A DNA stretch of 64,000 bases from Candidatus Paceibacter sp. (GCA_020725175.1 DYFM01000004.1:20015-84014); one strand, 5' to 3'. Shown: positions 6,239-64,000, numbered from the stretch's first letter. The notes: generated by a model from the letters alone, not told the origin. Made by a program: numbers and translations.

Positions 6239-6392
6239 GTAATATTTTTTCGGCTTGGGTGTTCTTGGGGGTGCTGTATTGTCGATGGGAATACTATTGT
6301 AGAATGTAAATACGTATGTAGTGTAGTGGTGGAGTGATGAAATGATGTAGTGTTGTAGTGATGTAGTGGTGTAGTGTATTAGTGTTGCGGTG

Positions 6393-7616: not shown

Positions 7617-7656
7617 TGAGAAACGTATAAAACCGATAAAACTTGTAAAACAGATA
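7617..7656. repeat. four phased ATAAAAC/GTTTTAT heptamers (about 10-bp spacing) in iscS upstream region
   Basis: 'gtATAAAACcgATAAAACttgtAAAACagATAAAACtttt' directly upstream of the iscS start codon. Confidence 0.5.
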
Positions 7657-7838
7657 AAACTTTTATATTAGAAAAAGAAGTTTTATAATAGGGGTTCGTA
7701 TGAATTGGTGTATGTTCTGAATTGTACGATAATTTGGCACTATCATAACATGGAGTGAATGGAAGTTCAATTTTTCTTTTCATGATGAAAAAACCGACCA
7801 AGCGGTGGTCGGAAGTAGGAGGGTAGACAGGTGGTTTT

Positions 7839-15392: not shown

Positions 15393-15624
15393 ACTTCAAA
15401 GGCTTATGAGGCTTCCTAGGCTTACAAGGCCTACGAGGCACTTTAAATACGTATTGAATGTAGTTTGAGATATTGAAAAATAGAAACTTGAAATGTGGGT
15501 TTTTGAATAACAAGTCAACTTGTTACCCTGCCAACTTGTAAACTTTTCAACGTAGGTATCATAACAAATTGCGGAGGAAAATAAAACGGCTATTCAGGAA
15601 TGTTGGGATCGTTCTTTGGGTTTT

Positions 15625-17095: not shown

Positions 17096-17176
17096 AATTG
17101 TAAAGTTTAAAGTTGGTGGTTTAGAGTGAGTACCAATATTAATATCATCTTTTGACTTTTATATCGGCATAGGAAC

Positions 17177-17242
17177 CTACCAACTTTCTAACTTGCCAAC
17201 TTGCCAACTTGTCAACTTGTAAACCTGCTAACTTACCAATCA
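17177..17242. repeat. Family C octamer microsatellite (ACTTGCCA)n, degenerate
   Basis: 'aacttgccaacttgccaacttgtcaacttgtaaacctgctaacttaccaa'; other arrays at 15520-15545, 27128-27185, 29196-29226. Confidence 0.6.
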
Positions 17243-27230: not shown

Positions 27231-27294
27231 ATAAAAAGACGAACTTCCGTTCGTCATTCTTAGAAATTAGATATTAGACATTAGACATTCCCAC

Positions 27295-32868: not shown

Positions 32869-33067
32869 AAGGTAGAGATGATTGATCGAAATAACGAAAT
32901 AAAGAAATAGCGAAATTTTGCAATAAAGAATGGTGTACGATTTATTTCTTCATTTCTTTGTTTCGTTATTTCGAAAAACAAATATCCGTAACTTCGTATT
33001 ATCCGTAATCCGTAAGGCTAATAAAAAGCAGACCAGAAAACCGGCCTGCTTGTGAAGATGTACATCG

Positions 33068-38314: not shown

Positions 38315-38439
38315 TTTGGAAAGCAGAATAGGTTTGTCGGCAGGGTAAGTAGATTAGGTTCGATATCTATCAGCTACTTCAAAACTTACTTTGCTTACTC
38401 TGCTTACTCTGCATAATCTACTTGCTAACTATAAATTCT

Positions 38440-49400: not shown

Positions 49401-52400
49401 CGGATCATTTAGTGGTGCAGGTTCTATCTCGGCGGATGGTGGTGATGGTGGGGGTGGTAGTGCTTCCTATGATGGTGGAGGAGGCGGTGGGGGCCGTATT
49501 GCCATTGTTCCTCTTGAAGGATCTCTATCATACACAGGTACAATTACCGTAGATGCAGGTGTTGGTCCGGACGCAGCACAAGATGGTGGTACAGGTACAA
49601 TTTATATTTTACCGAACTCTTCTTTTACTCTTGATGCTTCATATACATCGGCTGCTTGGCCAGGTACAATTTCAGGTACTTCAACCGACCATGATGTGAG
49701 TGTTGCGCAAGTCGATCTCAAGATTCAACGTTTTTCTGATAGTTATTACTGGAACGGTTCAGACTGGACAGCGAGTGAAACCTGGGTGACCTCAACCGGT
49801 ACGAGTACCTGGAGTTATAGTTTTTCGGGTGGTAATATGACTGATGGTACCTATACCGTCACTTCAAGAGCAACGGATAGTGATGGTGAGGTGGAAGCAG
49901 TATTGACTAGTGATAGCTTTACATTTTCTTCCATAGCCAGTGCTCCTCCTGTTGCCGGCGTTCCTGCTTACGCTTCTCAAGCGAGTGATGGTTCCGGTTA
50001 TGTCACAATTACAGCCGAAGTCTCAGACCCAAATTTTGATTCTCTTAAACTTCGAGTTGATTATTCCGATAATGGAGGTATCAATTGGTATGATCCGGAT
50101 TTGGTGAGTGTTAGCGCGTCGGTAGGTACGAATCCGGATCTAGATGATGCTAATGTGTATCAAATTGGAACAGTTAGTAATATCTCTACGGCCTCGAGTA
50201 ATACACTGTCAATTGTGTGGAATACCAAGTCAGCGTCAAATGGGAATGGGGCAATTGCCGGTCGCCAGACTGATATAATGGTTCGTGTTCTTCCAAATGA
50301 TATTATCGGTGAAGGAGATGGAACCTATGCGACTTCTACAGCATTTACGGTAGACAATTCGGCCCCGAGTGGTCCGGGAACTGCCTCTGCCTCATTTTCC
50401 GGCTTAAATGCTTCTATTTTTTGGACTGCAGTGACTGAAGATGAGTTTAGTCGATATGAAATATGGTATGGAACAAGCCAGAGTGATGTAGAAGGGAGGA
50501 CCGGCGCGGCACAACCATACACGACAAGTTCTGATCCTAATCTTTCGAGTACTTCAACCATAAACGTGACTATTTCAAGCTTGTCTCTTGGGCAAATTTA
50601 CTATTTTCAAGTTTTTGCTTTTGATGCTTATGGAAATTATAGTACGTCTACTGTAGTTTCAGGGACGGTGCCTGGCACCCCGCCTACGGTTTCCACACCA
50701 ACCCTTACACAACAATTGTCTGATGGGACGGGTTATATAACATTTACTACTCAAGTTCATGATACTGATACCGAAGATCTTTCGCTTCGAGTTGAATTTT
50801 CCGAAGATGGGAGCGCCTGGCGGAAGGCATATATTGTTACTTCATCGGTCAATTACGGTACCTCTACTATTTTTAATGTAAATACAAATCAAATCAGTGT
50901 TGATCGTTTGAGGGCCAATAATGGCTCTTTGTATTCCGATCTGGTCGCGCATTATGATTTTGATACAGATACCTCGACACTTGCTGATATTACTGGAAAT
51001 GGGTATAACGGTTTTTGGAGTACCGGTGCTGCTTCGCTTACCATCGGTAGATATGACAGTGCCGGGGATTTTGGTGCTCAATATGTACAAGTTAATACTC
51101 CAATATTAAATGACCCGCCTTTTTCTGTTTGTTTGTGGGCCAAACCAGACTCTCTTTCGCCAAGTTCTAATGATTATATTATTGCAAATGGCGCCCATAC
51201 TTCAGCAAAGGGTTTTAGTTTGTATTACAATACAAGTGGATGGAATTGGGTAGTCAAAAATATTTCATACAGCAAAACTCAGGTATTGAGCGCTTCTTCA
51301 GGGTGGAGTTTTTTATGTGGAACTTGGGATGGCACAGATACTGCTGGTGCAGTAAAATTTTATATAAATGGATCAGAAAATTCTACTACTGCAGTTGGTG
51401 GAGGAAGTAGTGTGAGTCAAGATTTAAGAATTGGAGAAGCAAGTGATGCTACAGGATATAGATTTGAAGGCTTAATTGATGAAATTTCAATATTTAATCG
51501 TATCCTTTCGTCTGACGATGTGCTCGAGTTAATGAATGCTCCGTATCCTTCAGGTTCAACCACTACACTCACCATTGTTTGGGATCCCACCTCTGCCTCC
51601 AATGAAGGTGGTGCTCTCACCGGTGAACAAAGTGACATTCAAGTTCGAGTGCGAGCGAACGACAGCTTGCAAAATGGGGAGTACGTAACTTCATCGGAAT
51701 TTAGCGTGGATGTGCAGGCGCCGACCGGCTTAGCAAATCTTGCCGTTACCGCTACTAGTACCAATGGCACGGTGGATCTCTCTTGGAGTGTAACAAGTGA
51801 TACCAATTTCAACCGTTATGAAATTTGGTACGGCTCAAGCAGTTCTGATGTGTCTTCTCGCTCCGGATCAGCCACTCGTTGGACGACCAGTTCTGATAGC
51901 AATCTCTCTAGCGGGGCTACTACCAGTTCTACTCTTACCGGTCTCCCTGGCGGTACCTTGTACTATAGTGTGTTTGCTATTGATGATTATGGAAATACGG
52001 CCACCACGACACAAGTGTCAGCGACTATTGTGCGAGATTTTGTGTCTACTCAAACTGGCAACTGGAATGTAGGTACCACTTGGGGCGGAGCATGTTCTTC
52101 TTCGTGTACTGCCGGAACCGATTTCCCAACCTCTACTGACACCGTGGTAGTTACCAGTACTCATGTGGTTACTATTCCGGCCTCAACCAGTGCCAGCTTC
52201 AATAGTCTTAATATCCGTGGTACTGCCACGGTAAAAATGGTGGGAAACATTGGTACCGGTACGGATATTACCATCGAAAACGGGGCGACATTACAACAAG
52301 AAAATACCTCTCTGCAAACAATTTCCGGAACACTTACCGTGGAGAATGGGGGAACCTTTACACATACTGCCCAAACCGATACATCTTCAAGTGGTGGCTG

Positions 52401-55400
52401 GACTACTCTTTCAAACATTCATTTTTCTGCGGATACAATTCTCATTAATTCTGGAGGGGCGATTACCGCCTCGCAAAAAGGATTTGCCGGAAGTCCTGCG
52501 GCTACAAACGCTTCCGATCTTGCAGCGCAAGGGTATGGTCCGGCCGGAGGATATAAAGCATCCGGGGGAGCGTCTCATGCTGGAACAGGAGGAGCTTCTT
52601 CTTGGAGCGGGGGCGCACAAAATACTACTTATTGTACAAAAACCCTTCCTGCTACGATGGGTTCCGGAGGGTCAGCAGCCCAAGGCACCAGCCCAAATGG
52701 TGATGGTGGAGATGGAGGTGGCTTGATTCAATTATATGCAAATCAAATAACAGTAACTGGTTCAATTTTATCTTTGGGAGGTGATGGAACCGCGGGGTCA
52801 GCTTCCGGTTCAGGGGGTGGTTCTGGTGGAGGAGTATTTGTTTCTACAACAGTCATCAGTGGTTCAGGTACTATTTCTGTCAATGGAGGAAATGGCTACA
52901 GTTATGGAAACTTTAATGGTGGTGGTGGAGGGGCTGGGTGTGTATCCATTATCGGTACAGAAGGGTCACTCTCCGGTTTTAGTGGATCAATCAATAAAAC
53001 CGGGGGTGTGGGGCCTGGTGCCGCTGGTGATGGTGGGGCAGGTACCCTCTACATCCGTCCCGACTCATCAATCACCAGTCTCACCACGAGTTCATACACA
53101 AACTTTTCTTGGTCGGGCACTATCTCCGGTACGTCAACTGATCATGATGATTCTGTTTCAAATGTTCACCTGAGAATTCAGCGAGGCAGTGACTCTCAAT
53201 ACTGGGACGGCAGTACCTGGACGGCGAGTGAAACTTGGGTTACCAGTACCGGAAACACATCGTGGAGTTATGATATCGCGGCCGGAAATTTTACTGATGG
53301 AGTGTCCTACACCATATCATCACGCGCGACCGATTCTGAGTCGGAAGTGGAAAGTGTATATGATACCGCCACTTTTAGTTTCTCAACCGAAGCCAACACA
53401 GCTCCGACCGCTACGGCTCTGAGTGTTTCACAAATTGCTTCTTCCACTGCCAGAGGAATAGTGTATGCCACTACCACGGTTTCGGATTCAAACTTGCAAG
53501 ACACCAGTCTTTACATTGATTACTCGCTTGACAATGGAGTGAATTGGACTTCTTCTACCATTGATGTCTTCAGTATTTCCGGACAAACAAATGGTTACAG
53601 TACCTCGACCGGTCAAATAAGTGGGATCGATTCTTCGGCTGGAGAAAAAACCGTTACCTTTATCTGGTATGCTTACACTGATGCCGGAGCGATTGACATC
53701 TCTTCCGCTCAGCTCAGAGTTACCCCAAACGATGGTACCGTAAACGGCAGTATCCAAACCTCGGCTTCCTTCAATCTCGACACCAATCCACCATCCGGTC
53801 TCGGCTCTTTCACTGTTTCAAGTTACACCTCTGAGCAAGTTCACCTCACTTGGGCGTCTACCACTGATACCAACTTTGATCATTACGAAATCTGGTATGG
53901 TACCAACCAAAATGATGTTCAAAATAGACAAAATACCGCCATCGAATGGGATACGACTGATGATGCTGATCTTGCTATCGCCGGTACCGCCTCGACTACC
54001 ATCACCGGGCTTACTCCTGACACGTACTATTTCAAAATCTTTGCAATTGATAGCTACTACAACGAATCTACTGTCGCCGACATCAATACCACCAACTCAA
54101 ACACGGCACCGACTTCAACCATTTCTGTCCAACCATCCCAAACCACCAACGGCACACAAACAATTTCGTTCACGGCCACCATTCAAGATACCGACGCCAC
54201 GCAAACGAGCATGATCGTGGAACATTCCACTGACGGATCTAGTTGGACTTCTTCTACTATTCTTTCTGTTACCCCGGACTTTGGTTCTGTCACCACATCC
54301 ATCGGACAGATCACCTTAATTGATACCGATCTAGCAGACAACAACACCGTCTCGCTTGCCGTGACTCTGTCTGCTAGTGTCAATTTTCCTAATACCAGCG
54401 ATGATACTGTCTACATCCGCCTTACTCCTCAAGATTCATACGCCAACGGATCAAGTCTCACTAGTTCCGCATTCATTGTCGACACTATCAACCCTACGAC
54501 ACCGGGTTCATTTACGGTTTCAACTTCAACGACATCAACAATTACATTTACATACGGCAGTGCTTCAACTGAGGATCATTTTAGCCAATACAAAGTATAT
54601 TACACCCAAGCAAGTAGTGGGGTTACCATCAACGATACCGAGATAAGCAGTTCTACGGTATCGGCGCTTGGCTCGCGAACTTTCAACGGCGAAACTACCT
54701 TTACTCTTGCGAGTCTTTCTCCAAACCTTCCTTATACCATTACCATCAAGGCTTTTGATAGCTACGGAAATGTTTCCAGTCTAGCAACCGAAACAACCGC
54801 CTATACCAACCCAACCATTCCAATCAGTCTGGCGGTATCTTCTCTCAACGAAACCACGCTGCAGCTTTCTTGGAATGCAAATTCCAATCCATCCGGATCA
54901 ATCTATTACCTTGCCTACAGTGACAATACCTTTATTGCCACCACTACCGCGACCAGTACCAATGTCACCATTGAAACTCCGGGACAAGAATATACCTTTA
55001 AAGTACGAACACAATACGCCAATTCCACAACGACGTATTCTGATTATTCTGCTACTGCAAGCGGGTCGACTACTATCAATCCTCCAAACGCTCCAACCGG
55101 AGTAACACCAGCAAGTGTATCAACATCCACCCTTACGCTTTCATGGACAGATACCAATTCCTACGAAGATAATTATTTTGTATACCTTGATACGACGGAA
55201 GGGGAGAGTGATACGCTGGTTACCACTACAGCATCAAACGTTACTTCAACTGCTATCTCGGGACTAACTCCAAATACCACTTACTACTTCACTGTTGTCG
55301 CTTCCAACACGGCCGGTACTGCAACATCTACTCAATCTAGCACAACAACAATTTCACTGTCACCTGATGCTCCGACAGATCTTACGGTAACAAACATTCA

Positions 55401-58400
55401 ATCAACCTCACTTACATTGAGTTGGACGGATAACACCAGTGGTACCAACGCGGAAGATAATTTTATTGTGAAGTATGGGACCAGTACCGGATCATATTCC
55501 ACCACTGCCACGACGACTCAAGCCAATACCACCTCAAGCACAGTTACCGGTCTTACTCCCAACACCGAGTATTTCTTTGTTGTCCTGGCAACGAACGAAG
55601 CTGGTACCGCTACCTCAACCGAATTTTCAACCACCACACTTGATTCCGCTCCTACCGCTCCAACCAATCTTACTGTTTCAAATAAATCAACTTCAACACT
55701 TACCCTCTCATGGGATGACAATGCCAACAATGAAACATCGCAGACCGTTCTTTACGATACGGACAACAATTCATTCAACAATAGTTCATCTCAATCTGCC
55801 AACACTACTTCAACATCAATTACCGGTCTTACTCCTAATACTCAATACTATTTCAAAGTGAGAAGTACCAACGCCGGTGGTTCAAACGATTCAACAGTCA
55901 CTACTACCTACACCACTGCCAACGCACCGACTATTTTGTCTATTACTGCTGTTTCCTACGATCGTATTTCTCTGAGCTGGAACGCAAACACGAACCCAAG
56001 TGGTACGGTATATGAAGTGACTCGAGTTAATGGTGAAGATATACTACTCGCCACTACAACCGAAACCAGCTACACGGTTACCGGCCTTGACGTCGAAACC
56101 ACCTACACCTTCAAAGTTCGGGCGATCAATGCGGATGGCTCTGGGTACTCCAATTATTCTGACCCCGAGGCAGAGGCAACAACGAGTATCGATCCTCCTA
56201 CCGCCGCCTCAGGACTTAGCTTTAGTTCTGTTGCGAGTAGTTCCCTGGTTATTTCCTGGACAGACAATTCCACTGGTTCAGCCGAAGAAACCTCTTTTAG
56301 TGTCAAGTATGGTACTGCTTCTGGAACCTATTCAAACACTGCTACCACCACGGCTGCCAATGTTACCTCAAGTACTGTCACCGGTCTATCTCCAAGTACG
56401 ACGTACTACTTCGTGGTCATCGCAAGCAACAGTTCCGGTTCAACCACTTCTACCCAGGCAAGTACTTCAACCGTTATTTACGCGCCAGCCGCACCAAGTG
56501 GGGTAACGATTCTTTCTACCACGGCGGACACCCTCAGTCTTTCGTGGACAGACAATAGTAGTGGTGATACCCAAGAAGCGGACTTTTTGATTGAATATGG
56601 TACTGATGGTGTGAGTTTCCCAAGTAGTACAACCGTCGCCGCCAACGAAACAACGGCGCTCCTGACGAGTCTTACTCCAAACTCGACCTATTATGTTCGA
56701 GTAACTGCGAGAAACAGTGCCGGATCGGCAACCAGTGATAGTGTTTCATCAGCCACCAGTATTGGACTTCCGCCAAAACCAAGTAGTCTCACCTTTAGCG
56801 CTGTCTCTACCTCTTCTCTGACGATCACATGGACCGACAATTCTTCCGGAGATTATCAAGAAGCATCTTTCACGGTTGCCTACACTACCGACGGCTCTAC
56901 CTATACCACCGCCACTACCACTGCTCCAGACACCACGAGCGCGAGTGTGGATAGTCTCACTCCAAACACCACCTATGTTTTCAAAGTTACCGCGACCAAT
57001 GCCAGTGGTTCGGGTATTTCTGATACCGAAACAACTACCACACTTCCTTTGGCTCCGGCAGCAGCGAGTGGGCTGAGTGTGGCCAGTACCACTCCAAGTT
57101 CAGTTACACTCACCTGGACTGACAATACGGGAAGCACTGATAATGAAGAATACTTTACTATTGAATATGGAACTGACGGAGTCTCCTTCAACAATTCTCT
57201 CATTGCTATTAAAGACACCACTTCGCGAACGGTGAGTGGGCTTTCTCCAAGTACTACCTACTACTTTAGAATTGCCGCTAATAACAGTGCCGGTTCAAGC
57301 ACCTCAGACGTGGTATCAGCTACTACCAATGTGGGGGCTCCAATGGTACCGGGAAGTTTGACAGCGGTTTCAGTCACTACCTCAACCGTTTCACTGACTT
57401 GGGTAGACAACAGTAGTGGAGAAAATGAAGAAGATAATTTTATTGTGAAGTACGGAACAGACGGTGTAAACTATGGCACTACTGCCACCACCACCGGTCA
57501 ACACGTGCAGGCCGCGACCGTTACAGGTTTAACACCAGGTCTCCGCTATTACTTCATCGTCGAAGCACGTAATACCACTGATGCGGCGGTGTCCCAAGAT
57601 GTTATCGTTACCATGTTGCCAAATGCTCCTGGTGCGCCAACTCTCGAAAGCGCGAGTGCTACGTCGATTCAATTGAGTTTTGCTGCCAATGGGAACAATG
57701 CTGAGGTGGATTATGCTATTTATAATGAAACAACTGGTAAGTACATCAATACAGTTAGCAATGAACCAAGTCTCTCGGCTGGATGGCAAACAGCCGCACA
57801 GTGGGGAAGTCCGATCACTGTTTCCGGTCTAGCGCCAAACACGAGTCATGTGTTCAAAGTTCGCGCACGGAATGCCAACGGAGACTTTTCGGAATATTCA
57901 GCAACGTCTAGTCTCTATACGCTTGCGGCGACCCCTACCCGCCTGAGTGCCAGTGTGGCGTCTGCTACGAGCATTACGGTTTCTTGGAATGCCAATAGTA
58001 ATCCTAGTGGCACGGTGTATGAAATCTATGACTACACCAATACTACCGTTCTCACAACCACCACGGAAACCAGTTATTCTCTTACCGGACTCGGGATCAA
58101 TACCGGGTATCGGTTTCAAGTCCGGGCCGAACATGCCGGAAGCCCGGGGACTTATTCCGATTATACTTCTCCACCAAGCACTCTGCTATACACCCTTGCC
58201 ACCGCGCCAAACCCGGCTGTCGTGAGTAGTGTCTCCACTTCATCGTTTACTATCCTCTTTAGTGATAGTGATACCAATCCAAGTCACACCAAGTACGCGA
58301 TTCGAATTGGTGATAGTCAATATCTTCAAGCTGATGGATCATTGAGTGCTAGCACGCTTTACCAAACCGAGACGGTGTGGAATTCTCCAAGTTACGTGGG

Positions 58401-60411
58401 TCTCTCTCCAAATACGCAGTACTCGATCACTCTACGCGCGCAAAACGGCAACAATATTCCAACCGCTTTTTCTGATACGACAAGTACGTATACGTTAGCG
58501 GAAATCCCAACTAGCTTGGCCACCTCTTCGGTCGCACAAACCAGTATCACACTCACCTGGAACGGCGGTTCTAATCCGGGGACAACGGTCTATACCCTTG
58601 CCACCGGTTTGGGGACTACGATTGCGACGACAACTGCCGAAACGTACACCTATTCCTCATTGACCTGTAACACAGAATACACCTTCAAAGTGAAAGCAAG
58701 TAATGCCGATGGTATTGATACCGATTGGTCTGATACTCTTACCCAAACCACCAGTGCCTGTGACGCTGAAGATCCGGGAGATGGGGGAGGGGATGATGGG
58801 GATAATGGTGGAAATGATGTCGGAAACAATGAACAACCCTCCAGTGGAGCGGCTCCACCACCATCTGTCTCAATTCCTCTGCCAATTTCACTATCTGTCA
58901 ATGGACAAACCGTCAATATCGATACCAGTGAACAAACCACGACCGGTGGTGATTTATTGGTAGAAGCAGATATCATTGAAGCCAAACTCAAACCAAAGAC
59001 TGGCTTCAAATTGCCAATTCAAAATCAAACGCACACGGTTCAACTGATTGACATTGCCGACAAAACTGCGATTCTTGAAGTTCGCTCCAAACCGGTTCGG
59101 GTGGCCTTGAAACAAAAACAAGAAGCAGTGGTTGATACCGATGAGGATCAGATTCCGGATCTCCATATTTATCTCAAAGACATCTCACTCTTTCAGTCCA
59201 AGGCAACTGCGGTTGTTACGAATCTTCACAAGTTGCCGATTTCTCTCAACAACAATCTTTCTGAAACAATGAGTAGAGACATTCTTGTTCGACTGATTGA
59301 GTTGCCAAAAGTAAGTCATGTCGCACTTTCTGAAGACAAAAACTTTACCGGTGTTTCGTACGTGCCATTTGAGCGTTTGCGAGGGTTTACGTTATCAAGT
59401 GGTTATGGCAAAAAAACCGTTTATGTCAAATTTCGCACGTCTCAAGGCGCAGAGGCTGTCACTGCCGCAAGCATCACTCTCGTTAAAGGTACAGAACTGG
59501 ATCAGCGTACCGCATGTCCGCTCACTCCACAATTAGCGTACAAGACAGCAAACCACCCGGCCGTCTACTACATCACAGAAACCTGCACCAAACGTCCATT
59601 TAGTCGCTCGGATGTGTTCTTTACCTATTTCACCAACTGGAACCAGGTTAAGATTATCGATGACAAAACACTTCAATCTATACCAACAGATACCCTTGGT
59701 TTTATGCCATGGGGACCACTCTATGATCCGCAGTACGGGGCTTTGGTGAAAACTGTTACTGATCCAAAAGTCTATCTTCTATTGGGAAATGAAAAATATT
59801 GGATTACTGATGAGAAGGTCTTTAATGCTCTCAACTACCAATGGAACTGGATTGAAGATGTGGATCAACGTCTCCTTGATGCATATGTTATTGGCTCAGA
59901 AATCAACTATACCGATCGTCATCCGAACTATACTCTCATCAAGTACCAACATAGTCCAAAGGTTTATCGATTAGAACCCTCATCCGAGGGGGCACAAATC
60001 AAACGTCATATCAGCAATGAAGCAGCCTTCATCTCACTCAATTTCCGTTTTGATAGAATTGTCACGATTCCGGAGACAGAAACATATCCTGACGGAGAAC
60101 CGTTGCAGGGAACAAGCGGGTCGTTGCAAATGGTTTATACTTCGAAACTACGAAATAGCGAAACAGCGAAACAATCGCAGAATTCTTCTTCATACCAATT
60201 TACCAAAACGTTGCAACTAGGGGATTATGATCCGGACGTGATTGAACTTCAAACCAAACTCAAAGAACTTGGATACTTCCATCATCTCCACATTACCGAC
60301 TACTTTGGTCCAGTTACTGAAGAAGCTGTGAAAGCCTTTCAACGAGATCGCGGTCTTGATCCAATTGGAATTGTTGGTCCGGGGACGAGAGGTGTGCTGA
60401 ATGATTTGTAA
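46402..60411 (+). CDS. giant (4669 aa) cell-surface protein: signal anchor, three Gly-rich beta-helix-like modules, LamG/ConA-like lectin domain, more than 25 fibronectin-III-like repeats, C-terminal peptidoglycan-binding domain
   Basis: uninterrupted 14-kb ORF; repeated 'TLTHTDNTTAQTH..VTVSGSI..GGxGGxG..GGGRIAIV' modules; LamG-like block about 50880-51540; many 'SWT/WTDN..YxV' FN3-like units; C-terminal 'LQLGDYDPDVIELQTKLKELGYF..VTEEAVKAFQRDRGL' PG_binding_1 motif. Confidence 0.85.
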   Translation: MVIMGKIIKRHWHKTLLLVLLVSVAGFFGLFGSRYGFKTDVVKADSRTITCNGTSRTLTVGAYTDAAGTTFESGSDLILDQGSGACTFTLNGTVSLASLNVGSGVTLTHSDNTTAQTYTLVLNVTGDVTVSGSIDVSGKGFSPGYGSGAGMNYSAGNMSGAAYGGYGGSGGWSSSYTKAVSYGSALAPAEIGSGGGNGYAATTGGDGGGHVKITATNLTVSGSILANGNSGTISGGYGGSGGSGGSVYLLVSSTVNLTGATLTANGGNGANGTVNNTSADGGAGGGGRIAIVNYASYSAPTTLSVYGGTAYLNAQDGGAGSIYIKENGTNGTLTYDNNSSADSIGSRITDSANYTIDELVLKNGTSLTIPSGVTINSSQSTFNNTGTNTLTLVGIFNLTNTEFTFPSNLTFSASGNASIGTSITSSTIAGTVTFTYGMTQNLSSLSTVRVASGGTLFLSSYTTSNALTIDTLTVEGTLTHTDNTTAQTHIINVVASDVTVSGSINVNARGFAGGATGSHGSGNVNGYGIGYSNGNSGGAAYGGYGGAGGYNGGANGKATAYGDALAPTDLGSGGGGGYNSAGGDGGGTIKITATNLTVTGSIVANGETGKTTGTYGGGGGSGGSIYLVVSSTVDFTGATITANGGNGGDGSGNDTSANAGAGGGGRIAIVNYSSYTAPTTLTAYGGIGPTNASDGGAGSIYIKQTGTNGILTYDNAVSVDGTGSIITASANYTIDELVLKNGAALTLPSGATITSNQTTFNNIGTPNPTFVISGTFNPGNTSFIFPSSFTTTFGSTGVLSTVTSSTLQGTAGWTYGFTHSLSNLTIDSGSTVTLSSFTTSNALSIATIIINGTLTHTDNTTAQTHVINLSATDLTIGASGSISGNAKGYTGSSAGTVGNGTGGGTYAGGAGGASHGGVGGAGTNSSQKAAYGSASLPVTIGSGGGGGSGWGGGDGGGYVKVLVSNLTLAGSISVNGAGGTSNGSYSGGGGSGGGVYLNISGSFSGAGSISADGGDGGGGSASYDGGGGGGGRIAIVPLEGSLSYTGTITVDAGVGPDAAQDGGTGTIYILPNSSFTLDASYTSAAWPGTISGTSTDHDVSVAQVDLKIQRFSDSYYWNGSDWTASETWVTSTGTSTWSYSFSGGNMTDGTYTVTSRATDSDGEVEAVLTSDSFTFSSIASAPPVAGVPAYASQASDGSGYVTITAEVSDPNFDSLKLRVDYSDNGGINWYDPDLVSVSASVGTNPDLDDANVYQIGTVSNISTASSNTLSIVWNTKSASNGNGAIAGRQTDIMVRVLPNDIIGEGDGTYATSTAFTVDNSAPSGPGTASASFSGLNASIFWTAVTEDEFSRYEIWYGTSQSDVEGRTGAAQPYTTSSDPNLSSTSTINVTISSLSLGQIYYFQVFAFDAYGNYSTSTVVSGTVPGTPPTVSTPTLTQQLSDGTGYITFTTQVHDTDTEDLSLRVEFSEDGSAWRKAYIVTSSVNYGTSTIFNVNTNQISVDRLRANNGSLYSDLVAHYDFDTDTSTLADITGNGYNGFWSTGAASLTIGRYDSAGDFGAQYVQVNTPILNDPPFSVCLWAKPDSLSPSSNDYIIANGAHTSAKGFSLYYNTSGWNWVVKNISYSKTQVLSASSGWSFLCGTWDGTDTAGAVKFYINGSENSTTAVGGGSSVSQDLRIGEASDATGYRFEGLIDEISIFNRILSSDDVLELMNAPYPSGSTTTLTIVWDPTSASNEGGALTGEQSDIQVRVRANDSLQNGEYVTSSEFSVDVQAPTGLANLAVTATSTNGTVDLSWSVTSDTNFNRYEIWYGSSSSDVSSRSGSATRWTTSSDSNLSSGATTSSTLTGLPGGTLYYSVFAIDDYGNTATTTQVSATIVRDFVSTQTGNWNVGTTWGGACSSSCTAGTDFPTSTDTVVVTSTHVVTIPASTSASFNSLNIRGTATVKMVGNIGTGTDITIENGATLQQENTSLQTISGTLTVENGGTFTHTAQTDTSSSGGWTTLSNIHFSADTILINSGGAITASQKGFAGSPAATNASDLAAQGYGPAGGYKASGGASHAGTGGASSWSGGAQNTTYCTKTLPATMGSGGSAAQGTSPNGDGGDGGGLIQLYANQITVTGSILSLGGDGTAGSASGSGGGSGGGVFVSTTVISGSGTISVNGGNGYSYGNFNGGGGGAGCVSIIGTEGSLSGFSGSINKTGGVGPGAAGDGGAGTLYIRPDSSITSLTTSSYTNFSWSGTISGTSTDHDDSVSNVHLRIQRGSDSQYWDGSTWTASETWVTSTGNTSWSYDIAAGNFTDGVSYTISSRATDSESEVESVYDTATFSFSTEANTAPTATALSVSQIASSTARGIVYATTTVSDSNLQDTSLYIDYSLDNGVNWTSSTIDVFSISGQTNGYSTSTGQISGIDSSAGEKTVTFIWYAYTDAGAIDISSAQLRVTPNDGTVNGSIQTSASFNLDTNPPSGLGSFTVSSYTSEQVHLTWASTTDTNFDHYEIWYGTNQNDVQNRQNTAIEWDTTDDADLAIAGTASTTITGLTPDTYYFKIFAIDSYYNESTVADINTTNSNTAPTSTISVQPSQTTNGTQTISFTATIQDTDATQTSMIVEHSTDGSSWTSSTILSVTPDFGSVTTSIGQITLIDTDLADNNTVSLAVTLSASVNFPNTSDDTVYIRLTPQDSYANGSSLTSSAFIVDTINPTTPGSFTVSTSTTSTITFTYGSASTEDHFSQYKVYYTQASSGVTINDTEISSSTVSALGSRTFNGETTFTLASLSPNLPYTITIKAFDSYGNVSSLATETTAYTNPTIPISLAVSSLNETTLQLSWNANSNPSGSIYYLAYSDNTFIATTTATSTNVTIETPGQEYTFKVRTQYANSTTTYSDYSATASGSTTINPPNAPTGVTPASVSTSTLTLSWTDTNSYEDNYFVYLDTTEGESDTLVTTTASNVTSTAISGLTPNTTYYFTVVASNTAGTATSTQSSTTTISLSPDAPTDLTVTNIQSTSLTLSWTDNTSGTNAEDNFIVKYGTSTGSYSTTATTTQANTTSSTVTGLTPNTEYFFVVLATNEAGTATSTEFSTTTLDSAPTAPTNLTVSNKSTSTLTLSWDDNANNETSQTVLYDTDNNSFNNSSSQSANTTSTSITGLTPNTQYYFKVRSTNAGGSNDSTVTTTYTTANAPTILSITAVSYDRISLSWNANTNPSGTVYEVTRVNGEDILLATTTETSYTVTGLDVETTYTFKVRAINADGSGYSNYSDPEAEATTSIDPPTAASGLSFSSVASSSLVISWTDNSTGSAEETSFSVKYGTASGTYSNTATTTAANVTSSTVTGLSPSTTYYFVVIASNSSGSTTSTQASTSTVIYAPAAPSGVTILSTTADTLSLSWTDNSSGDTQEADFLIEYGTDGVSFPSSTTVAANETTALLTSLTPNSTYYVRVTARNSAGSATSDSVSSATSIGLPPKPSSLTFSAVSTSSLTITWTDNSSGDYQEASFTVAYTTDGSTYTTATTTAPDTTSASVDSLTPNTTYVFKVTATNASGSGISDTETTTTLPLAPAAASGLSVASTTPSSVTLTWTDNTGSTDNEEYFTIEYGTDGVSFNNSLIAIKDTTSRTVSGLSPSTTYYFRIAANNSAGSSTSDVVSATTNVGAPMVPGSLTAVSVTTSTVSLTWVDNSSGENEEDNFIVKYGTDGVNYGTTATTTGQHVQAATVTGLTPGLRYYFIVEARNTTDAAVSQDVIVTMLPNAPGAPTLESASATSIQLSFAANGNNAEVDYAIYNETTGKYINTVSNEPSLSAGWQTAAQWGSPITVSGLAPNTSHVFKVRARNANGDFSEYSATSSLYTLAATPTRLSASVASATSITVSWNANSNPSGTVYEIYDYTNTTVLTTTTETSYSLTGLGINTGYRFQVRAEHAGSPGTYSDYTSPPSTLLYTLATAPNPAVVSSVSTSSFTILFSDSDTNPSHTKYAIRIGDSQYLQADGSLSASTLYQTETVWNSPSYVGLSPNTQYSITLRAQNGNNIPTAFSDTTSTYTLAEIPTSLATSSVAQTSITLTWNGGSNPGTTVYTLATGLGTTIATTTAETYTYSSLTCNTEYTFKVKASNADGIDTDWSDTLTQTTSACDAEDPGDGGGDDGDNGGNDVGNNEQPSSGAAPPPSVSIPLPISLSVNGQTVNIDTSEQTTTGGDLLVEADIIEAKLKPKTGFKLPIQNQTHTVQLIDIADKTAILEVRSKPVRVALKQKQEAVVDTDEDQIPDLHIYLKDISLFQSKATAVVTNLHKLPISLNNNLSETMSRDILVRLIELPKVSHVALSEDKNFTGVSYVPFERLRGFTLSSGYGKKTVYVKFRTSQGAEAVTAASITLVKGTELDQRTACPLTPQLAYKTANHPAVYYITETCTKRPFSRSDVFFTYFTNWNQVKIIDDKTLQSIPTDTLGFMPWGPLYDPQYGALVKTVTDPKVYLLLGNEKYWITDEKVFNALNYQWNWIEDVDQRLLDAYVIGSEINYTDRHPNYTLIKYQHSPKVYRLEPSSEGAQIKRHISNEAAFISLNFRFDRIVTIPETETYPDGEPLQGTSGSLQMVYTSKLRNSETAKQSQNSSSYQFTKTLQLGDYDPDVIELQTKLKELGYFHHLHITDYFGPVTEEAVKAFQRDRGLDPIGIVGPGTRGVLNDL

Positions 60412-60650: not shown

Positions 60651-60765
60651 ATAAAAGCAAAACAAAACAGACACACATGAAAAAGATACTCAAAGGATAA
60701 ACCCCACGTCGAAATTCATGATAAAATTCATCTCAAAACCGTCGTTTCGCAGGCGGTTTTGTATT

Positions 60766-60794
60766 TTGACAACACCCAATTTCAAAGGTATACT
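60766..60794 (+). promoter_or_regulatory. consensus sigma70-type promoter TTGACA-17 nt-TATACT
   Basis: -35 TTGACA 60766-60771, 17-nt spacer, -10 TATACT 60789-60794; precedes PAS-sigma gene. Confidence 0.6.
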
Positions 60795-60842
60795 GAAACT
60801 TCACAGACTATAGTTTTTCCAGCCTTTCAAGCATTTTCTCAC

Positions 60843-61913
60843 ATGTTCAACAATTTCTCTGGCACCATCATCATTACCGACCCAAACGCGGTGATTCTCT
60901 ATGCCAATCCGTCGGTAGAAGAACGGACCGGTTTTTCGGTTGCGCAAGCAGTAGGAAAACGACCGGGAGAATTGTGGGGTGGACACATGCTGCGAGAGTT
61001 TTATGATCGGATGTGGCAGACGATACGTGAGGAAAAACGCCCGTTTGTTGGTGAAGTAAAAAATAAGCGCACAGACGGTACGTTTCGGCGTATGGGGCTC
61101 CATATCGCACCGATTATCAATCGTCGAAATGAGGCAGAATACTATATCGCTATTCATCCGGCAGTGACAACTGACGTGGAAGAACGACAATTTCAACAGG
61201 AGTTTGCTGAGGTATTTGCACCATGGCATGTTTCTACTTCTTCGGAAACAATTGCTTGGTTGGCGCGTTGGACCAAAGGCGAAGCCAAATTGACGCTTGA
61301 CGAAGGAGGTGTACTCCACAAAACACATCTGGTTGATATGGTCTCCTTTTTTCGTACGGAACTCATCAACCCGATTGCCGAAAAGTTTCAAGAGCGAAAG
61401 GCTGATGCAGAATTGGTACGATTGGCACAAGAAAAACCAAGCAAGTTCCATTTGTTATATGAAAAGTATCAGGCATCAGTTGAACAGTATTTTTTGCGCC
61501 GGTTAGGAGGGGATGTTATGTTGGCGGAAGAGTGTACACAAGAAACGTTTATTCGTGCGTTTCGATTTTTACCGCAGTATCATATTACCAATGCTTCGTA
61601 CCAAACTTACCTTATGCGTATTGCTCACAATTTACTAGTAAGTCATTATCGCAAACAAGCTCCACTGTCTCTTGAAGAGCAAGAAGGAACATTGGTCAGC
61701 GAAGATAATTATGAGGGTATTTTTGACCAAGAAGAATTGCGACAATTATTAGAAACTGTTTCGGATGTTGAACGAGATATCTTAACGATGAAATACATTG
61801 ATGAATTATCTATTCGTGACATTGCCGTAACCCTCGGAAAAACAGAAAATGCCGTGAAACTTATGTTGTCGAGAACAAGGAAAAAATTGAGAAATAGGGA
61901 AATAACGAAATAG
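60843..61913 (+). CDS. PAS-domain fused to sigma-70/ECF-type sigma factor (sigma2 + sigma4 regions)
   Basis: N-terminal PAS fold 'IIITDPNAVILYANPSVEERTGFSVAQAVGKRPGELWGG'; sigma region 2 'YFLRRLGGDVMLAEECTQETFIRAFRFL'; sigma region 4 HTH 'ILTMKYIDELSIRDIAVTLGKTENAVKLMLSRTRKKL'; start set at Met 60843 downstream of promoter (track start 60759 overlaps promoter). Confidence 0.75.
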   Translation: MFNNFSGTIIITDPNAVILYANPSVEERTGFSVAQAVGKRPGELWGGHMLREFYDRMWQTIREEKRPFVGEVKNKRTDGTFRRMGLHIAPIINRRNEAEYYIAIHPAVTTDVEERQFQQEFAEVFAPWHVSTSSETIAWLARWTKGEAKLTLDEGGVLHKTHLVDMVSFFRTELINPIAEKFQERKADAELVRLAQEKPSKFHLLYEKYQASVEQYFLRRLGGDVMLAEECTQETFIRAFRFLPQYHITNASYQTYLMRIAHNLLVSHYRKQAPLSLEEQEGTLVSEDNYEGIFDQEELRQLLETVSDVERDILTMKYIDELSIRDIAVTLGKTENAVKLMLSRTRKKLRNREITK

Positions 61914-62215
61914 GGAAATAACGAAATGTGTTTCCCTCTATCAGGGGGACGCAAGGGGGTCGTTCAGAGGTAGAGTGTTTGGAACTTGGATAGTGCTTTT
62001 ATGTTAGCCCTTTGCTAGCTAACTAAGGAATAACAGACGACCCAAGGGGAGTGTGTTGGAATGTACAATACACACTAAATAATAACTTTAAACACAAAGA
62101 GAGAAAATAAATTGTCAAAAACAGTAGATCTGAACAGCTATGGTTGATTGAAATAGGTGAAAAATGTGATTTCTTAATCAGTAAAATAGCAAACGCCAGA
62201 TTTTCCCAAAAACAA

Positions 62216-62256
62216 AAAACCGTATCTGCAAGAACCAGTACGGTTTTTTTATTTCC
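62216..62256. terminator. bidirectional rho-independent terminator (A6-CCGTATCTG..CAGTACGG-T7)
   Basis: 8-bp stem with one bulge flanked by A and T tracts. Confidence 0.65.
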
Positions 62257-62317
62257 ACGTTTCGCCCTTCGGTAGGCTCAGGGCTCATCAGTCCCGATCA
62301 TCAATCGGAAGACGTGG
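62255..62317 (-). ncRNA. type III hammerhead self-cleaving ribozyme
   Basis: minus-strand RNA 5'-CCACGUC^UUCCGAUUGAUGAUCGGGA-CUGAUGA-GCCCUGAGCCUACCGAAGGGC-GAAA-CGUGG-3': open helix III (6 bp), closed helix I (7 bp, loop UGAUG), core CUGAUGA, closed helix II (5 bp, 11-nt loop), GAAA, GUC cleavage triplet; all invariant core positions present. Confidence 0.8.
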
Positions 62318-62350
62318 TCCCCGGCGCGAGCGCTGGGGAGCACGCCGGGG

Positions 62351-62485
62351 CTAACGCATCAGGTGTCCGATGCATGAGCCCACCCCTCCCGCCACCGCCA
62401 GAGCAAACAGCTGCTCTGGCGTGTGGCCCAGGAACAGGCCCATGGCGGCGCAGGTCAGCGCCGCCACGATGTAGGACTCCGTCAT
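62351..62485 (-). CDS. GC-rich (about 66% GC) 44-aa hydrophobic two-helix peptide (MTESYIVAALTCAAMGLFLGHTPEQLFALAVAGGVGSCIGHLMR)
   Basis: strong GC3 bias (ACG GAG TCC TAC ATC GTG GCG GCG CTG ACC TGC GCC GCC ATG GGC CTG...) in a 38% GC genome; small-residue Gly/Ala zipper-like helices; followed by 8-bp GC hairpin, hammerhead and terminator; frame differs from track ORF 62301..62501. Confidence 0.45.
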   Translation of the reverse strand: MTESYIVAALTCAAMGLFLGHTPEQLFALAVAGGVGSCIGHLMR

Positions 62486-62813
62486 AAAAAAACCCCATCA
62501 AACACCTGCACCACGCAGATGTGAGGGGTCCTCCTACAAAAAAACTACCAGAGAGAGAGAGTTAAAAGTCAATAATAAATCGCTCTACAACCACCTTGTT
62601 CCTTGCCACTTACCTCTGACACCTTTTCCCTATTTCTGCGTTTATTAATATAGAGTACCCGCCCTGGGCGGAAAAAGTAAAACAACAAAACAATAAAACA
62701 ATAAAGCAATTTAGCAATGTGACAATATAACAATCAAACATTTTATACATTAGTTCAATTCAATGAGCCTTCGAAGCCTTGTAAGCTTCGGGGACCTCGT
62801 AAGCCTTTCAACT

Positions 62814-64000
62814 ATGCCTATCTACAAAATTCAAAAACGTAACGGCACTATCGTCAACTTTGAATTGAGTAAAATTGAACATGCGGTGCGGCAAGCAGCG
62901 AAGTCGGTCAATCAATTGGACGAGGGAATCCCTCCTACGGTAGCCAAGGAGGTGTTGGTTCAACTTGAAGATTTGTATCAAGACACAATTCCAACCGTAG
63001 AACAAGTGCAGGATGTGGTGGAGGAAGCATTGATCAAATTTGATTACGCGGAAATTGCCAAGGCATATATTTTGTATCGTCAAAAACGTAATGAAGTCCG
63101 TGAAGAAAAAAGTGTGGTGGTAGAAGTGGGAAAAACCATTGATGAATATCTTGGGCACCTAGATTGGCGCATTAACGAAAATGCAAATATTGGGTATTCT
63201 ATCGGGGGGTTGATTTTAAAAAATTCCGAAAAAATTGTCGCCAACTATTGGTTGAGTCACATTTATCCAAAGGCTGTAGGTGAAGCGCACCGAAACGGGG
63301 ATTACCACATTCATGATCTCGGTATGTTTACCGGGTACTGTGCCGGTTGGAGTCTGCGGGCACTTCTTGAAGAAGGATTCAATGGTGTGCAAGATAAAGT
63401 AGAGTCCGGCCCACCAAAGCATTTGAGTTCGGCCGTGGCACAAATGGTAAATTTTCTGGGTACCCTCCAAAATGAATGGGCAGGCGCACAAGCATTCTCC
63501 AGTTTTGACACGTATTTGGCACCCTATGTAAAAAAATACGAAATGGAACTTGAGCAAGAAATCGACGAACACGGGATGCAGTTTTTAACAGAAGAAGCGA
63601 AGCAGTTGTATATTGACGAAAAGACGTATCAGTATGTGTTTCAAAATATGCAGTCGTTTGTGTTCAACTTAAATATTCCATCTCGCTGGGGAACACAAAC
63701 ACCATTTACCAATATTACGCTTGACTTGCAATGTCCGGAAGATTTGAAAGATAAACGGTTGTTGCTTGGAGGAAAACCATTTGAGTTTACGTATGATCAA
63801 TTGCAAAAAGAAATGAACATGATCAACCGGGCGTATATTGAAGTGATGAGCCAAGGTGATTCCAAAGGACGTACGTTTACTTTTCCTAGTCCGACGTACG
63901 ACATTACCAAAGATTTTGATTGGGATAATCCAGCCTATGAGCCATTATTTGAAATGACGGCCAAATACGGTACCCCATACTTTCAAAATTTTGTGAACTC
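62814..64000 (+). CDS. nrdD: anaerobic ribonucleoside-triphosphate reductase (class III RNR), N-terminal part; runs off window
   Basis: N-terminal ATP-cone 'MPIYKIQKRNGTIVNFELSKIEHAVRQAAK', downstream class III RNR core ('FTFPSPTY'); no stop within window. Confidence 0.85.
   Translation, partial: MPIYKIQKRNGTIVNFELSKIEHAVRQAAKSVNQLDEGIPPTVAKEVLVQLEDLYQDTIPTVEQVQDVVEEALIKFDYAEIAKAYILYRQKRNEVREEKSVVVEVGKTIDEYLGHLDWRINENANIGYSIGGLILKNSEKIVANYWLSHIYPKAVGEAHRNGDYHIHDLGMFTGYCAGWSLRALLEEGFNGVQDKVESGPPKHLSSAVAQMVNFLGTLQNEWAGAQAFSSFDTYLAPYVKKYEMELEQEIDEHGMQFLTEEAKQLYIDEKTYQYVFQNMQSFVFNLNIPSRWGTQTPFTNITLDLQCPEDLKDKRLLLGGKPFEFTYDQLQKEMNMINRAYIEVMSQGDSKGRTFTFPSPTYDITKDFDWDNPAYEPLFEMTAKYGTPYFQNFVN

Follow-up and report, generated by a model that had tools for sequence, protein, structure and literature searches.

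A type III hammerhead ribozyme directly before the terminator of a small GC-rich cassette in a bacterium of the candidate phyla radiation

We analysed a 64,000-nt stretch of DNA from Candidatus Paceibacter sp. (GCA_020725175.1 DYFM01000004.1:20015-84014), referred to below as the window, and describe a type III hammerhead ribozyme on its minus strand at 62255–62317. The ribozyme lies in a gap of about 900 nt (61914–62813) between the gene of a PAS-domain sigma-70 protein (the sigma/PAS gene) and nrdD, whose ATG is at 62814. The neighbouring genes are those of a giant surface protein, the sigma/PAS gene itself, nrdD–nrdG, DHO_dh, znuABC and fur. Within the gap, the ribozyme is located near the 3′ end of a cassette of about 370 nt and about 70 % GC, which extends on the minus strand from about 62572 to 62208 and contains, from 5′ to 3′, a promoter-like site, AGGAGG, a 5′ hairpin, U7, a 44-codon open reading frame (ORF), a GC hairpin, the hammerhead and a terminator. 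The features are listed below, with the evidence for each in brackets.

61919–62616 (approximate bounds), no strand assigned: about 700 nt of extra DNA compared with relatives from the candidate phyla radiation (CPR), with the cassette antisense inside it (spacer lengths, alignment A1, inverted repeat I6)
62542–62572, minus strand: promoter-like site (putative assignment from the sequence)
62486–62535, minus strand: 5′ leader (sequence; fold of -24.6 kcal/mol, z=-4.8)
62351–62485, minus strand: 44-codon orphan ORF, MTESYIVAALTCAAMGLFLGHTPEQLFALAVAGGVGSCIGHLMR (ORF list, codon usage, fold)
62319–62350, minus strand: GC hairpin, CCCCGGCG...CGCCGGGG, separating the stop codon from the ribozyme (folds)
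62255–62317, minus strand: type III hammerhead ribozyme (sequence, descriptor, minimum free energy (MFE) fold, Rfam model RF00008, covariance model R1)
62317–62311, minus strand: 5′ strand of helix III and C17 (sequence)
62310–62292, minus strand: helix I hairpin (sequence)
62291–62285, minus strand: core CUGAUGA (sequence)
62284–62264, minus strand: helix II hairpin (sequence)
62263–62261, minus strand: GAA (sequence)
62260–62255, minus strand: 3′ strand of helix III (sequence)
62208–62254, both strands: bidirectional intrinsic terminator (sequence, inverted repeat I4, folding as a hairpin, hairpin-plus-T-run test)

Read on the minus strand from 62317 to 62255, the sequence is CCACGUC UUCCGAU-UGAUG-AUCGGGA CUGAUGA GCCCU-GAGCCUACCGA-AGGGC GAAA CGUGG. 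A preliminary description of this DNA had given the same transcription, and on rechecking it agreed letter for letter. The complete hammerhead core claimed there is present: C3 U4 G5 A6 U7 G8 A9, G12 A13 A14, the pair A15.1–U16.1 and C17. CUGAUGA was mapped to 62291–62285 and GAA to 62263–62261, A62260 pairs with U62312, and C17 is nucleotide 62311. The helices also have the proposed type III order, helix III being open (6 bp) and helices I and II closed (7 and 5 bp); helix I has 8 bp when an additional G·U pair is counted. The pairs next to the core, U1.1–A2.1 in helix I and G10.1–C11.1 in helix II, are in place, and loop II is long (11 nt, GAGCCUACCGA). Helices I and II differ in length by 2 bp, a geometry that Perreault et al. 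linked to a pseudoknot in type III hammerheads (PMC3088659). The GUC cleavage triplet was confirmed as well, and the predicted cut falls between 62311 and 62310. When the 65-nt stretch was folded, its MFE structure was the three-helix hammerhead (-23 kcal/mol, z=-2.7).

To this we can add statistical support. A strict type III descriptor found one site on the two strands of the window, compared with an average of 0.015 in shuffled windows. With permissive filters, the Rfam model Hammerhead_3 (RF00008) aligned end to end with 62254–62318 on the minus strand and gave 34.4 bits (E=1e-5 when 501 nt were scanned and 1.9e-5 for 931 nt), which is about 1e-3 when scaled to 64 kb. The preliminary description had named such a match as a check on the ribozyme, and the outcome was divided: the full-length minus-strand match was obtained, significant locally and at about 1e-3 per window, and the gathering score of the family was missed. 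It was found that a whole-window Rfam scan at gathering thresholds returned two tRNAs only and no hammerhead, because the score is under 48.5. We then applied RF00008 to 20 metagenome loci with descriptor-positive type III hammerheads. The model gave 16 matches to these comparable hammerheads, spanning 27.6–62.8 bits, of which three reach 48.5, and several descriptor-positive motifs in the same loci escaped it altogether; the gathering threshold of RF00008 is therefore conservative for environmental type III hammerheads.

In addition, we built a covariance model (R1; 14 bp) from 95 environmental type III hammerheads with the candidate left out, by aligning the sequences and then projecting their pairs onto the alignment. 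On the 64-kb window the candidate was the sole match at E≤10 and scored 45.2 bits (E=1.7e-9), in the middle of the range of held-out hammerheads (30.6–54.5 bits), with the caveat that the training set had been gathered with a pattern sharing the helix-proximal CGUC, GNCC/GGNC and GAAACG with the candidate. A second hammerhead was found by neither the descriptor nor model R1 in the window or in locus L001. Beyond the two tRNAs, the Rfam scans showed no other ribozyme or RNA family in the intergenic region or the window, and no other self-cleaving family reached its gathering score. It is clear from sequence, fold and two covariance models that the motif is a genuine type III hammerhead ribozyme, and it is very likely that the sequence would be able to cleave itself in vitro.

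The terminator stands directly 3′ of the ribozyme and is common to the cassette and the convergent sigma/PAS gene. It had been described immediately downstream of the ribozyme at 62216–62256, and it is present at 62254–62208, where an A-tract (62254–62244), a bulged 24-nt stem-loop (62243–62220) and a U-tract (62219–62208) follow one another. The consensus terminator scanner that we used did not call it, because the stem is bulged and has few G–C pairs. The overall layout was also described correctly, as the predicted cut parts the micro-ORF and the GC hairpin from the ribozyme body and the terminator. At the other end of the cassette, the 5′ leader consists of AGGAGG (62535–62530), a strong hairpin (62529–62493) and U7 (62492–62486), which abuts the AUG; by its sequence, the leader looks like a terminator/attenuator or a hairpin-bridged ribosome-binding site. 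The promoter-like site is made up of TTGACT (62572–62567), a 19-nt spacer with (CT)6 at 62561–62550, and TAGTTT (62547–62542). When the whole intergenic region of about 900 nt was compared between the window, L001 and L002, the sole polymorphism was (CT)6 versus (CT)7. This gives a spacer of 19 or 21 nt in the promoter-like site, a classic layout for slipped-strand promoter phase variation.

The composition of the cassette differs from that of its surroundings. In 120-nt windows over 62241–62520 the GC content is 0.60–0.71, compared with 0.43 in the window overall, and it amounts to 72 % in the 150 nt preceding the ribozyme. The ORF itself has about 66 % GC, distributed over the three codon positions as 0.64, 0.49 and 0.84 (GC1, GC2 and GC3), that is, with strong codon periodicity. 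Its codons are of high-GC style and unlike those of the host: leucine is encoded by CTG in six of six cases (background, 11 %), and glutamate, glutamine, histidine and isoleucine solely by GAG, CAG, CAC and ATC. These values bear out the view of the micro-gene as compositionally foreign. We also noticed that a Shine–Dalgarno (SD)-like motif at a functional distance precedes just one of the 28 confident long-ORF starts in the window, so this genome seems to start translation largely without it. The missing properly spaced SD in the cassette is therefore uninformative, and the perfect AGGAGG is a further foreign trait.

The 44-aa peptide MTESYIVAALTCAAMGLFLGHTPEQLFALAVAGGVGSCIGHLMR has two short hydrophobic segments. 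A word-indexed search of 5.8 billion clusters and an exhaustive phmmer search of 1.84 billion representatives returned the query itself only, and there was no family match in Pfam, NCBIfam, PHROG or PADLOC. The RNA of the ORF (135 nt) contains very stable internal hairpins, with an MFE of -84.7 kcal/mol (z=-7.5), and the 361 nt of 62200–62560 fold with z=-11. None of 500 synonymous permutations, 500 GC3-class resamplings or 500 codon-order shuffles was as stable as the ORF RNA, whose structure therefore exceeds what the peptide imposes. The start region was predicted to be paired both before and after cleavage. The RNA had been called a tiny mRNA, a claim that goes too far: the ORF is without relatives in these searches, and the same 135 nt are unusually structured.

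To place the cassette in its genome, we looked at related loci. The window is 99.97 % identical, over the overlapping ~11.6 kb, to the Joint Genome Institute (JGI) metagenome contig Ga0246236_1000063 (132.8 kb), and a contig from a second sample has the same locus. The cassette is identical in the window and in both metagenome assemblies. An assembly chimera was thus rejected, the arrangement being the same in two independent samples and the window. The PAS-sigma70 protein has orthologues, ~35–44 % identical, that carry the names Magasanik-, Moranii-, Uhr- and Paceibacteria, which confirms by name the CPR-like genome suspected earlier (CPR/Patescibacteria). As no orthologue is more than 44 % identical, this CPR host has no close relatives among sequenced genomes. 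In three different relatives (L217–L219, L220, L221–L222) nrdD follows 86–117 nt past the sigma/PAS gene on the same strand, and a terminator, AAAGGTGTC-loop-GACACCTTTT, with GTGTTTAT behind it, is common to their spacers (alignment A1). The window keeps the right arm and the downstream motif of this ancestral terminator at 62617–62650, beside nrdD, and a perfect 12-nt complement of the outer part of the right arm is found at 61907–61918, at the sigma stop codon (inverted repeat I6). The terminator arms are split, and the ~700–800 nt of extra DNA therefore sit inside the old terminator. No hammerhead was found in the sigma/PAS–nrdD loci of the relatives.

As to the origin of the extra DNA, the cassette appears from these comparisons to be horizontally acquired and inserted antisense into the terminator region between the PAS-sigma gene and nrdD. 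Two repeats were noted, a 27-nt direct one of 74 % identity (D1) and the 12-nt inverted one (I6), but neither is long enough to prove a mechanism. No second copy of the cassette was found in about 72 kb of contig, and there are no terminal inverted repeats; a multi-copy mobile element was rejected on these grounds. When 62200–62560 was compared as DNA with phage and plasmid records, there were chance-level GC-rich matches of 30–40 nt only. An origin from an integron attC site, a repetitive extragenic palindromic (REP) element or a CRISPR-like hairpin was rejected, since the hairpins are mutually unrelated and form no repeat family. A two-ribozyme circular-RNA or retrozyme-like arrangement was also rejected, no other ribozyme being present in the region or the window. 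Similarly, we found no sign of a prophage-type hammerhead cluster: the ribozyme is single, and the locus has no integrase or prophage-like genes.

Some properties of the surrounding genes were also observed. The PAS-domain sigma-70 protein is encoded directly upstream of nrdD–nrdG across several CPR lineages (60759–61913 and 62814–64000 in the window; L217–L222), and it may be a sigma factor that senses oxygen or redox state and serves the anaerobic ribonucleotide reductase specifically. Here, and not in the relatives, the DHO_dh gene and a 61-aa ORF part nrdD from a small NRDD-domain gene and nrdG. The 14 kb directly before the sigma/PAS gene (46402–60411) encode a protein of 4669 aa, in which Gly-rich, beta-helix-like segments are repeated and numerous fibronectin type III domains occur, with a peptidoglycan-binding domain at the C-terminus. 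The 25-nt sequence CAGGGGGACGCAAGGGGGTCGTTCA recurs in the same orientation, inside a similar stretch of ~35 nt, at 61942–61966 of the window (~30 nt past the sigma/PAS stop) and at 7475–7498 of L001 (~50 nt past the nrdD stop); the window has no further copy. Additionally, many intergenic regions contain tandem arrays of 7–9-nt units in up to 8 copies, the sequence differing from locus to locus (6321–6387, 7627–7662, 15400–15439, 17174–17239, 27260–27289, 32887–32972, 38385–38423, 61891–61927 and 62678–62740). They are mostly situated just upstream of gene starts and may be a lineage-specific regulatory or promoter architecture.

We then considered how the ribozyme would behave in its transcript. 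In a local context of 100 nt, present once the ribozyme has been transcribed and the terminator has not, the active fold is the MFE structure and helix III has a probability of 0.98; this drops to 0.22 once the terminator is included and to about 0 in the full transcript. An alternative upstream hairpin register, GGCGUG...CACGUC, can sequester the 5′ strand of helix III together with the cleavage site, the competing fold differing by a ddG of 0.9–6.7 kcal/mol when the terminator or the full transcript is included. This favours co-transcriptional cleavage and leaves room for kinetic control.

In the mechanism that we propose, the ribozyme would fold locally as RNA polymerase passes 62255 and would cut between C62311 and U62310. 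The cut would release a 5′ product of ~230 nt, comprising the leader, the 44-codon ORF and the GC hairpin and ending ...ACCACGUC with a 2′,3′-cyclic phosphate, and would free a 3′ product of ~100 nt with a 5′-OH, comprising the ribozyme body and the terminator. The new 3′ end could be capped or protected by the GC hairpin that lies directly ahead of the cut. In this way it would be the ribozyme, and not the terminator, that determines where the mature micro-gene RNA ends and thereby, as we suggest, its stability and hence its output. We lean slightly towards the view that the cassette is a small unit, self-contained and horizontally acquired, with the hammerhead as its untranslated 3′ end, and that the hammerhead serves in the co-transcriptional processing of the 3′ end of the micro-gene RNA; whether it is a 3′-end processing element in vivo is, in our judgement, evenly balanced.

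The place of the ribozyme in this layout can be compared with that of other type III hammerheads. A pattern with the type III order (CGTC, closed helix I, CTGATGAGNCC, closed helix II, GGNCGAAACG) was found in 21 viral contigs, in 16 of which the descriptor confirmed a type III hammerhead, and in at least 120 metagenome loci. From the metagenome loci, together with a few motifs from other loci, the descriptor recognised at least 121 distinct type III ribozymes; the source contig was not among the metagenome matches listed. A search of viral contigs with a core-plus-helix-II pattern returned type I hammerheads only and was uninformative for the type III topology. Among the matches listed, 115 type III hammerheads had enough flanking sequence for their position to be compared. 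The usual position is 10–25 nt upstream of a gene start, with an SD and a start codon within ~60 nt in 68 of the 115 listed, and a terminator-like hairpin right after the ribozyme was seen in one (L171). The upstream GC excess of the candidate is +0.29; in the comparison set, which it exceeds by a wide margin, the mean is +0.013 (sd 0.057, maximum 0.135).

Several results weigh against the processing function. At 34.4 bits the candidate stays below the RF00008 gathering score of 48.5. We found no convincing Watson–Crick contact between loop I and loop II of the hammerhead (by inspection, with Watson–Crick pairs only, UGAUG and GAGCCUACCGA can form at most a 3-bp UUG/CGA pairing), so that activity at physiological Mg2+ is uncertain. 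In the full transcript, the hairpin that sequesters the site is 4.3–6.7 kcal/mol more stable than the active fold. A promoter scanner gave no call at 62542–62572, where the putative promoter, with its 19-nt spacer, is weak. Protein searches with the ORF and DNA searches of phage and plasmid records gave no homologue of the cassette, the sole other copies (L001, L002) being identical to it, and therefore neither the ribozyme nor the ORF is backed by covariation or conservation. Finally, with 68 of the 115 hammerheads at gene starts and one before a terminator, the layout could equally be that of a truncated remnant.

This last point leads to another explanation, in which the cassette would be a stranded high-GC fragment of a phage or mobile element; the ribozyme might still fold, and both it and the ORF would be functionless here. 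The orphan ORF, the foreign composition and codon usage, and an AGGAGG in a genome with an SD at one of 28 genes are all consistent with such a relic, and so is the position of the segment within lineage-specific extra DNA, of which no other copy exists in ~72 kb of contig. Type III hammerheads of phages and metagenomes, moreover, mostly precede a gene, and such a gene is absent here. Nevertheless, all core nucleotides and 18–19 helix pairs are intact, the unit is neatly bounded, with a promoter-like site and with a terminator abutting the ribozyme, and an RNA structure of the ORF beyond that dictated by peptide and codons (0/500) argues against free decay, although a recent arrival would look alike. 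We consider a passenger relic unlikely.

The same RNA structure could be read in a different way, namely as a GC-rich structured non-coding RNA of ~230 nt whose 3′ end would be matured by the hammerhead, the ORF being incidental. The folding scores of the region (z=-11) and of the ORF alone (z=-7.5), the excess of structure over the synonymous-codon expectation, the start codon predicted to be buried in a hairpin and the lack of protein homologues all point in this direction. Against this, three-base periodicity (GC3 0.84 versus GC2 0.49) and high-GC codon choice occur in exactly the frame that is open, no Rfam family matches, and the near-perfect, mutually unrelated hairpins do not resemble typical evolved non-coding RNA folds. 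A non-coding RNA thus appears improbable.

Type I toxin mRNAs such as those of hok/sok and aapA1/IsoA1 are activated by 3′ processing. The cassette resembles hok and aapA1 in its small hydrophobic peptide, highly structured RNA, sequestered start codon and removable 3′ segment. By analogy, it could be a ribozyme-gated module resembling a type I toxin, with a structured mRNA that would remain inert until the hammerhead removes the 3′ segment. In addition to these shared traits and the variable repeat in the promoter spacer, the immediate 3′ flank of the ribozyme (AUAAAAAAACC) and the start region (GGUUUUUUUAU) show 11 nt of perfect complementarity (duplex of -12.3 kcal/mol). However, this complementarity consists largely of the homopolymer tracts of two terminator-like hairpins, forcing the long-range pairing costs 12 kcal/mol compared with the MFE, and folding predicts that cleavage leaves the start codon as buried as it was. 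A hok-like fold-back of the A-tract (62252–62242) on the start (62494–62484) was rejected for the same reasons (+12 kcal/mol, start region equally paired after the cut). Unlike in hok and aapA1, moreover, there is no homology, and folding lends no support to cleavage-dependent unmasking, so that the likeness is one of resemblance only. No antitoxin RNA was identified: a gene for an antisense RNA is not apparent, and the one promoter-like match on the plus strand, at 62056–62083, is weak and at chance level. The peptide matches no toxin family, and our literature search returned no natural precedent. We regard such a module as very unlikely. Hardly less doubtful is the related idea that the cassette is a possibly phase-variable micro-gene for a membrane-active, toxin-like peptide, in which competing hairpin registers would decide whether the ribozyme fires and cleavage would switch between a terminator-ended RNA and a hairpin-capped RNA with a 2′,3′-cyclic phosphate, of different fate. 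If true, this would be the first natural bacterial self-cleaving ribozyme that acts as a 3′-UTR (untranslated region) expression switch for a small toxic peptide and, together with L171, would hint at a rare 'terminal' class of hammerheads behind small membrane-protein genes.

That the motif is a chance look-alike in GC-rich DNA and no ribozyme at all is scarcely credible: it does occur once, without conservation, with a score under the curated Rfam threshold, but the descriptor expects 0.015 sites per shuffled window, the independent model gives E=1.7e-9, and the MFE structure is the active fold.

Returning to the hammerhead as a 3′-end processing element, the ribozyme class is already well known in bacteria and phages, and what is new is an example in an unusual position. 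Unusual are its place directly before a terminator, the compact orphan GC-rich cassette, the insertion into a conserved junction, and the CPR host. The role of many bacterial and phage hammerheads is still an open question (PMC6765202), and the simple layout, with one promoter-like site, ORF, ribozyme and terminator, means that the effect of cleavage on a single RNA could be cleanly measured. The example also indicates that CPR genomes take up and keep small high-GC pieces of foreign DNA bearing ribozymes; apart from this, it enlarges an already large and known family by one member.

Hammerheads in bacteria had been called rare in the preliminary description, which does not hold for type III: at least 121 distinct motifs, with 21 viral contigs and at least 120 metagenome loci, show that the class is common, in agreement with PMC3088659 and PMC6155905. 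According to these reviews, there are hundreds of hammerheads in bacteria, often flanking small non-conserved ORFs. Type I and type III hammerheads occur in bacterial intergenic regions and are often linked to phages, and their function in bacteria is largely unknown, mRNA processing being the leading idea (PMC6155905, PMC3088659, PMC6765202). Type III hammerheads in bacteria were also described by de la Pena and Garcia-Robles (2010), as cited in PMC6155905. Our literature search turned up neither a paper dealing with hammerheads in CPR genomes nor one in which a natural hammerhead is linked to a type I toxin-like gene.

With the type III hammerheads of bacteria, phages and metagenomes (RF00008; PMC3088659) the candidate shares the catalytic core, the helix order and the GUC site, and its helix lengths (I, 7–8 bp; II, 5 bp; III, 6 bp) are inside the range of the 121 listed environmental examples. 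Like bacterial and phage type III motifs, it is intergenic, beside a small non-conserved ORF and in foreign-looking DNA. In contrast to the usual arrangement, it stands directly before an intrinsic terminator and not 10–25 nt ahead of a gene start. Several phage type III hammerheads have a loop–loop contact UGAUGCC/AUGGCA, whereas the candidate, with its 11-nt loop II, has no obvious counterpart. It also differs from typical phage-linked cases in its CPR host and in a locus without integrase or prophage-like genes.

While comparing the environmental hammerheads, we noticed several other cases. In L123, a contig of 43 % GC, a type III hammerhead lies 5′ of a gene and has a helix I (UCCCGAU/AUCGGGA) nearly identical to that of the window; this similarity is possibly due to chance (roughly p~0.1–0.2 across 121 sequences), and the context differs. 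In the same contig (181–967, 3697–3770), the 3′ end of a small subunit ribosomal RNA precedes a group I intron match that stays below threshold, a feature often met in CPR. The contig may hold a second CPR hammerhead. A recurrent phage type III family has the helix III CUCCUCGUC...GAAACGAGGAG (L079, L087, L089, L091, L095, L165, L177, L186, L196 and L199). In this family the SD of the downstream gene (GAGGAG) stands 6 nt ahead of the ATG and doubles as the 3′ strand of helix III, and cleavage followed by dissociation of helix III would free it. Contigs of ~1–3 kb with type III hammerheads on both strands, or with an additional Hairpin-meta1 (RF04190, above gathering), were also seen (L101, L106, L132, L194, L214, L159, L201, L205; L127, L112), and these look like viroid-like or ribozyme-bearing circular RNA replicons in metatranscriptomes.

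A loose parallel in architecture is that with L171 (Ga0209542_10385950), which has the same order of parts: small hydrophobic ORFs, here of 56 and 89 aa, come first, and after an untranslated stretch the type III hammerhead and a terminator follow; as in the cassette, this terminator is composed of an A-tract, a hairpin and a U-tract. Unlike the cassette, L171 has no GC island and no similar ORF or helix sequence, and its spacer before the ribozyme is ~150 nt, where the cassette has one hairpin. Such a single case cannot establish a class.

A comparison can also be made with the intercistronic hammerheads in prophage operons of Clostridium scindens, Azorhizobium caulinodans and Agrobacterium tumefaciens, which are proposed to process a longer transcript into pieces of differing stability (PMC3088659). 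There too the ribozyme flanks a small gene of unknown function. The prophage-operon hammerheads, however, form clusters of two or three that bracket genes in polycistronic RNA (PMC3088659), whereas the candidate is a lone ribozyme that closes a monocistronic unit and has nothing behind it to set free.

Self-cleaving 3′-UTR elements that take away a stabilising signal of the 3′ end are represented by the discontinuous hammerhead of mammalian CLEC2 and by engineered twister reporters, and 3′-UTR ribozymes shift expression in reporter constructs (PMC6765202). As in these cases, the predicted cut in the cassette would detach a 3′-terminal element, the poly(A) signal there and the terminator hairpin here, and could tune expression. 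We know of no natural bacterial 3′-UTR ribozyme with a demonstrated effect on expression. The CLEC2 and twister cases are eukaryotic or synthetic. In the cassette, the upstream GC hairpin could substitute as the protective 3′ structure.

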